IMG/VR virus record: IMGVR_UViG_3300026549_002494
Span: 8,468 to 72,467 of that record
Length of the DNA stretch: 64,000 nucleotides
Origin: a virus
Lineage: Duplodnaviria > Heunggongvirae > Uroviricota > Caudoviricetes
Strand: one strand, 5' to 3'
This document shows positions 12,100 to 12,467 of this stretch, piece by piece. A program made the position numbers and the translations under genes. The first letter of the stretch is position 1. The number at the start of each line of letters is the position of its first letter. The notes below the pieces were generated by a model. That model did no database searches. It saw only the letters and a program-made list of their open reading frames with translations, and was not told where the DNA came from.

Positions 12100-12251
12100 A
12101 TAGAGCCAGTTTCAACATTTTGCGAAGAATTTTTAAACATAACACTGATTTGCTAAAACGAACCCTCTTTGTTAGCTATAAGCATCGGGTCATTTACTAA
12201 TGCAAAAAATTCATTGTTTATGTGATATGATTTTTCAACTGTAATATTCAT
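12100..12251 (-). pseudogene. cptN: Truncated type III toxin (CptN/ToxN-like) remnant
   Basis: SD AAGGA, ATG 12251: MNITVEKSYHINNEFFALVNDPMLIANKEGSF then TAG (12153-12155). Resembles the recalled CptN N-terminus (FF..M.DPYL..NK); in-frame ETGSIF* just downstream resembles GIYW. Confidence 0.6.
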
Positions 12252-12266
12252 AATAAATCCTTTCGT

Positions 12267-12298
12267 AAAAAAGCCCCTCATCTTTAAATATGAGAGGC
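12267..12298 (-). terminator. Intrinsic terminator between antitoxin repeats and toxin gene
   Basis: Minus strand GCCTCTCAT-loop-ATGAGGGGC followed by TTTTTT. Confidence 0.75.
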
Positions 12299-12300
12299 AA

Positions 12301-12404
12301 TTTACAACCCAACTACTTGTAACCCGCATATTGGTAAGCGGCAAACATTTACGAACTGAATAATTTATATCCCGCACCATCAGCAAGCGGAAAACATTTA
12401 CGAA
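12301..12404 (-). ncRNA. cptI: Type III antitoxin-like tandem pseudoknot repeats (CptI-like), 2 copies, 48-nt period
   Basis: Minus-strand units GTTTTCCGCTTGCTGATGGTGCGGGATATAAATTATTCAGTTCGTAAAT and GTTTGCCGCTTACCAATATGCGGGTTACAAGTAGTTGGGTTGTAAAT. Stem 1 CCGC/GCGG; stem 2 covaries (GCTGA:TCAGT versus CCAA:TTGG). Confidence 0.7.
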
Positions 12405-12438
12405 TCAAATAAAGACAATATCTTTATCTTTTATGTGT

Positions 12439-12467
12439 ATTGTAACACATCTTTATTAAAATTACAA
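12439..12467 (-). promoter_or_regulatory. Promoter of the type III TA-like locus
   Basis: Minus strand TTGTAA, 17 nt, TG-n-TACAAT. Confidence 0.6.

Follow-up and report, generated by a model that had tools for sequence, protein, structure and literature searches.

Locus architecture

The window, the whole stretch of 64,000 nucleotides analysed here, comes from a 136-kb IMG/VR provirus and carries the tape-measure, portal and large-terminase genes of a tailed phage. Two very large minus-strand tail ORFs flank an accessory island of about 7 kb (window 8929–15903), which holds an ImmA/IrrE-type peptidase and, on the minus strand, a cptI locus (Table 1). From 12467 to 12266 this locus consists of a promoter, two tandem units and a terminator; a ribosome-binding site and a 32-codon ORF starting at 12251 come next. 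The motif GUA/AAU bounds each unit. The terminator (12298–12267 in all) has a 9-bp stem at 12298–12273 followed by a T-run, and its layout, in which a cleavage-site-like motif leads into the hairpin, recurs in the family. Promoter and terminator are both identical in an intact relative of the locus, the 1,208-bp contig L002. As expected of a CptI array, in which direct repeats measure about 40–48 nt, the tandem units lie between promoter and terminator, directly upstream of the cptN start codon.

Other RNA elements are matched elsewhere in the window: a group I catalytic intron in the phage structural region (RF00028, 31104–31464, minus strand, 89.5 bits), a Pistol ribozyme (RF02679, 58313–58380, plus strand, 63.3 bits against a gathering score of 34.5) and a FuFi-1 RNA (44910–45150, plus strand, 59.9, barely above the gathering score of 59.6). 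At gathering thresholds Rfam shows no group I match at the borders of the island. An L10_leader-like match upstream of the island ImmA/IrrE gene (14018–14125, minus strand, 47.8 against 44) may be a false positive.

Table 1. Features of the cptI locus, the adjoining cassette and the flanking tail genes, in window coordinates
Feature	Position	Strand	Description
Tail ORF flanking the island	15838–20121	−	1427 aa, tape measure
cptI array promoter	12439–12467	−	−35 TTGTAA, 17-nt spacer, TG-extended −10 TACAAT; sigma-70-type; consensus scan
Leader, −10 box to unit 1	12400–12438	−	3′ end is the first GUA/AAU cleavage-site-like motif
CptI unit 1	12351–12399	−	49 nt
Unit 1 stem 1	12390–12387 with 12375–12372	−	CCGC/GCGG
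Unit 1 stem 2	12384–12380 with 12359–12355	−	GCUGA/UCAGU
CptI unit 2	12304–12350	−	47 nt
Unit 2 stem 1	12341–12338 with 12327–12324	−	CCGC/GCGG
Unit 2 stem 2	12334–12330 with 12313–12309	−	CCAAU/GUUGG
Third cleavage-site-like motif into intrinsic terminator	12266–12303	−	Motif AAAUUG; terminator scan
cptN remnant, 32-codon ORF	12153–12251	−	Only codons 1–30 (12251–12162) correspond to CptN
Replacement cassette	11199–12160	−	962 bp without homology to the cptN locus; breakpoints by blastn against L002
Cassette promoter	12054–12026	−	TTGACA-17-TACAAT; near-consensus, 11/12 positions
53-aa ORF	11987–11826	−	In the cassette, immediately upstream of the GNAT ORF
GNAT acetyltransferase ORF	11817–11275	−	180 aa, in the cassette
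Shared downstream terminator element	11123–11198	−	Matches the terminator element 3′ of the L002 toxin
Tail ORF flanking the island	1885–8883	−	2332 aa, NlpC/P60

The repeats form CptI pseudoknots

Both units can form the two stems of an H-type pseudoknot, and stem 2 differs between them by two compensatory double changes (CUGA/UCAG in unit 1, CCAA/UUGG in unit 2). We aligned 52 units of the 48–49-nt subfamily, both window units included, and compared the columns of stem 1 (10–13/25–28) and stem 2 (16–22/39–45) with controls in which the 3′ partners were slid. Across these 52 units, 89.7% of the cells are paired (35–45% in the slid controls), the covariation score is 0.417 (at most 0.09 in the controls), and changes on both sides occur at seven pairs.

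One of the closest known systems is the Eubacterium rectale CptIN system (PDB 4RMO; PMC4627078; family defined in PMC3401426), which has the same layout of promoter, two pseudoknot units, terminator and toxin. Its crystallised RNA, CptI_Er, shares stem 1, stem 2 and the A-rich loop 2 with the window units (AUAUAAAU in unit 1), at a length of 45 nt against 49 and 47 nt. In global alignment to the CptI_Er 45-mer, whose sequence we derived from primer CptI-WT in PMC4627078, both units score above all 2000 shuffles (for unit 2, 18 versus −6.8 ± 3.7). Unlike the E. rectale locus, that of the window sits in a prophage accessory island beside a tape-measure gene, and its toxin gene keeps only 30 codons.

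Within the family, unit 1 differs by 2–5 nt from the first units of Lachnospiraceae cptIN loci, and the unit 2 type is also present in five intact loci (L263 and L264–L267). The family covariance model, R1, scores unit 1 at 70.8 bits and unit 2 at 43.5 bits, both units being in its training set, and finds no further CptI copy in the provirus. Rfam leaves the array unmatched, both in a permissive search of 11500–13000 and at gathering thresholds over the whole window, because it holds no model that fits the array. The RNA is a genuine CptI array, with processing by CptN and neutralisation of the toxin as its putative properties.

These results bear out what the original prediction had observed of the RNA: that promoter, repeats, terminator and toxin start follow one another in the canonical type III (CptIN) order, for which L002 supplies an intact version of the gene with the same array upstream; that there are two repeats of about 48-nt period, found here as tandem units of 49 and 47 nt; that each forms an H-type pseudoknot, with which the family-wide covariation agrees, and that stem 2 changes in a compensatory way between the copies; and that the repeats resemble CptI.

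The toxin gene ends abruptly at codon 30

The 32-aa peptide has a single NCBIfam match, CptIN (NF047359; E = 0.0018, 18.1 bits), which covers profile positions 2–24 of 150; a full-length member spans about 150 positions with more than 90 bits and contains the catalytic core, and the window ORF falls short of this. Reading the ORF through its TAG and then searching for longer proteins led us to P0001 (167 aa), which reaches 176.8 bits on NF047359 (cut-off 90) and whose N-terminus is 93% identical to the window remnant. When P0001 is searched against the window with tblastn, residues 1–30 are recovered at 93% identity and nothing beyond. The remnant has E6 and I25 at sites where G6 and M25 are invariant in 35 family members, as expected of a dead gene. 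Pfam and PADLOC return nothing relevant for the peptide, a PDB sequence search with it gives chance coiled-coil matches only, blastn against phage and plasmid collections yields no useful match, and the NF047359 profile detects no other CptN in the provirus. The ORF is a CptN remnant and not a toxin.

P0001 is encoded on L002, which is 98.7% identical to window 12544–12161 over 384 nt. This shared segment comprises the upstream flank, promoter, two units, terminator and first 30 codons, and its five differences fall in the leader (positions 12435 and 12432) and in the toxin remnant (three). Past codon 30, L002 runs on into the intact 167-aa toxin, whereas the window diverges at 12160. Homology resumes between L002 836–913 and window 11198–11123 (93.6% identity, blastn), so that 962 bp of foreign DNA stand in place of cptN codons 31–167.

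The proposed likeness to CptN is thus borne out by the NCBIfam match and by identity to the N-terminus of an intact toxin. That the toxin gene is broken also stands; the description of it as stopped after 32 codons and further degraded does not, as homology ends abruptly at 12161. A pseudogene made by a nonsense mutation and subsequent erosion is ruled out, since homology stops abruptly and unrelated DNA follows.

The P0001 family comprises 108 protein clusters and is found on 49 viral contigs and in more than 527 species genomes, mostly of gut Clostridia. Among the 117 related loci with inspectable upstream sequence, most have two or three units with a period of 46–49 nt and the core GUAAAUGUUUGCCGC, then a terminator. 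Arrays such as those at L064, L066, L083, L086 and L129 often contain two or three unit types each, which differ in stems 1 and 2 (for example CCGC/GCUGA and CCAC/GCUAUAC). The type of the first unit is kept to within 2–5 nt even where the toxins are only 51–57% identical to P0001.

A GNAT cassette occupies the place of the toxin

The cassette that fills the gap has its own promoter and two ORFs (Table 1). The 180-aa protein matches the acetyltransferase family phrog_1758 (1.4e-11), and a profile of its family finds GNAT toxins of type II systems as the best PDB matches, among them TacT (5FVJ, 3e-8; PMC4942678), KacT (5ZGN, 5e-3) and related entries; Pfam GNAT models stay below threshold on the window protein itself. 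No Pfam family, not even DUF1778, matches the 53-aa protein. A homologous small ORF (48% and 36% identity) lies immediately upstream of the GNAT homologue in two other genomes, which makes the cassette a conserved two-gene, toxin-antitoxin-like module; its extents are 11275–11987 (minus strand) in the window, 2306–3052 in L268 and 2167–3052 in L269.

This arrangement, a GNAT protein with a small ORF immediately upstream, is also that of TacAT, AtaRT and KacAT. The window cassette differs from these in that its 53-aa partner is not a DUF1778 protein, and its toxicity and neutralisation are putative. We consider it a candidate toxin-antitoxin pair in which a GNAT protein, with a family profile nearest the TacT/AtaT/KacT toxins, has a partner outside DUF1778; the incoming DNA would then itself have been a toxin-antitoxin-like pair.

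Chromosomal arrays often lack an intact toxin

Using the RNA model and the toxin family as queries, we surveyed 151 genomes of one gut Bacillota family, plus two others, and read the resulting loci. The toxin is intact in six of the 13 CptI array loci; in four it has an internal deletion, a frameshift or a truncation while array and terminator are complete, and in three it is absent altogether, so that seven of 13 loci in the sampled gut Bacillota genomes have a broken or missing toxin. Arrays beside heavily broken toxins score as well as those of intact loci. Where a close relative is available, array and toxin remnant in the broken loci have diverged to about the same extent from their closest intact counterparts.

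Chromosomal arrays that keep promoter and terminator beside a deleted, internally deleted or frameshifted toxin occur at L272 (G041:C61), L274 (G051:C14), L275 (G067:C9), L276 (G082:C31) and L277 (G003:C12); this state accounts for about half of the sampled array loci. Published loci show the same condition: Blower et al. (2012) listed cptIN loci whose arrays are full but whose toxins measure only 45–101 aa (PMC3401426). Those of Bryantella formatexigens, Lachnospiraceae 9_1_43BFAA and others resemble the window in combining a complete array and terminator with a short toxin; they differ from it in that, in the window, a two-gene GNAT cassette fills the lost part and the element is a phage.

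In viral contigs we found no further orphan arrays with the patterns tried, which are narrow and make this a weak test. An exact 20-nt core pattern gave nothing there, a 15-nt core pattern gave mostly chance matches, and a two-motif pattern recovered one real array type only, with an intact toxin. The exact core of unit 2 is absent from the metagenome and viral collections.

Selection on the array and alternative explanations

The original prediction suggested that the phage may keep the RNA to neutralise a host CptN abortive-infection system and that the two divergent copies could cover different toxins. The latter idea is rejected: in L002 the same pair of units precedes a single intact toxin and serves it, and unlike units within one array are the rule in the family. 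For the former, we found no evidence that favours a decoy over a young remnant.

On the decoy reading, the window would hold a functional orphan, with CptI retained against the cognate CptN of a host cptIN locus during infection, or of an addiction module that a sibling phage or plasmid carries. The promoter, the two units and the terminator are fully intact and do not differ from their counterparts in the intact locus, unit 1 is near the family consensus, one CptI repeat is enough for antitoxicity (PMC4627078), and a sibling element with an intact cognate toxin exists in the form of L002. There is also a precedent in the ToxI mimics of phage phiTE (reviewed in PMC5086642). Promoter, units and terminator together show 0/163 differences from L002, against 3/90 in the remnant (Fisher one-sided p = 0.044), a contrast that might point to purifying selection on the RNA; the partition into array and remnant was picked after seeing the data, and the rate test, with five differences in total, is underpowered. 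The other non-coding flank, with 2/131 differences, does not differ significantly from the array. At a divergence of only 5/384 nt conservation is almost uninformative, and selection on the array cannot be claimed.

Further observations count against a decoy. The combination of kept array and broken toxin is found in about half of the chromosomal array loci, to which the logic of a phage decoy does not apply. Neither of two cptIN loci tested in E. coli gave phage resistance, and cptIN is not known to abort phage infection (Blower et al. 2012, PMC3401426). Each CptI RNA discriminates strongly in favour of its cognate toxin: among three CptIN systems, none of the six non-cognate pairs showed cross-protection (Rao et al. 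2015, PMC4627078). Our searches place the cognate toxin P0001 on one 1.2-kb contig only, and the narrow pattern searches added no orphan arrays from viral contigs. We regard retention of the array as a decoy as unlikely.

Co-option of the array in cis, as a leader or regulator of the GNAT cassette or of the downstream 32-aa peptide, is very improbable. Array and cassette are co-oriented, and transcription past the cptI terminator would run into the cassette, but the cassette has a near-consensus promoter of its own, no CptI array precedes GNAT homologues elsewhere, and the array does not differ from one serving an intact cptN. Records derived from metagenomes can be chimeras, but that the junction at 12160 is an assembly artefact and the true phage genome has an intact cptN is scarcely credible, given an ENA contig (L246, 238,608 bp) that matches 8,543 nt across both junctions with 100% identity, two further short contigs that cover the cassette and right junction, and the substitutions at invariant residues of the remnant, which fit a dead gene.

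Discussion

The explanation that we favour, with a probability of roughly 0.7, is that the locus is the antitoxin half of a prophage CptIN module whose cptN gene was cut at codon 30/31 by a 962-bp cassette bringing its own promoter, a 53-aa ORF and a GNAT-toxin-like acetyltransferase, and that the array is a young remnant. The prophage would originally have carried a complete cptIN module, and a GNAT-type cassette would then have displaced cptN beyond codon 30. Survival of the array may reflect the recency of this event, together with the constraint that a toxin-antitoxin module would tolerate only lesions that kill the toxin; under that constraint, a kept array beside a broken toxin would be a normal intermediate of decay. 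The array is probably still transcribed. Because processing needs CptN, its transcript, about 165 nt long, would remain unprocessed unless some other element provided a cognate toxin in trans. On this reading the array would have no selected function of its own. The data fit such an ordinary young remnant, and we see no sign of a new anti-defence device.

An effect of the array in trans on other CptN toxins is conceivable, and a decoy or anti-addiction role is possible, because unit 1 is within 2–5 nt of many Lachnospiraceae first units and a sibling element has the cognate toxin. Carried furthest, this would make the expressed toxin-less array a trans-acting shield against related CptN toxins of sibling phages, plasmids or the host, a natural counterpart of the phiTE pseudo-ToxI, and the site a slot in which CptN can be swapped for a GNAT pair without lethal loss of the antidote; we think this quite improbable. 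The pseudo-ToxI of the Pectobacterium phage phiTE (Blower et al. 2012 PLoS Genet, via PMC5086642) is likewise a phage-borne, toxin-less RNA of antitoxin-like repeats. The phiTE mimics, however, were selected as mutants that escape ToxIN by RNA mimicry, and their function was demonstrated experimentally (PMC5086642), whereas the window array, of another family and with a putative function, is an antitoxin left unaltered from the cptIN module that its own phage formerly carried.

Read as a young remnant of CptIN, the locus is a phage instance of a pattern already known for type III loci, which lose the toxin and retain an intact RNA antitoxin. It also offers a concrete route of decay, in which a GNAT toxin-antitoxin-like cassette displaces the toxin gene within a prophage accessory island. 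Should the RNA prove to protect against a cognate CptN, it would represent a natural RNA-based form of counter-defence or anti-addiction in gut phages.
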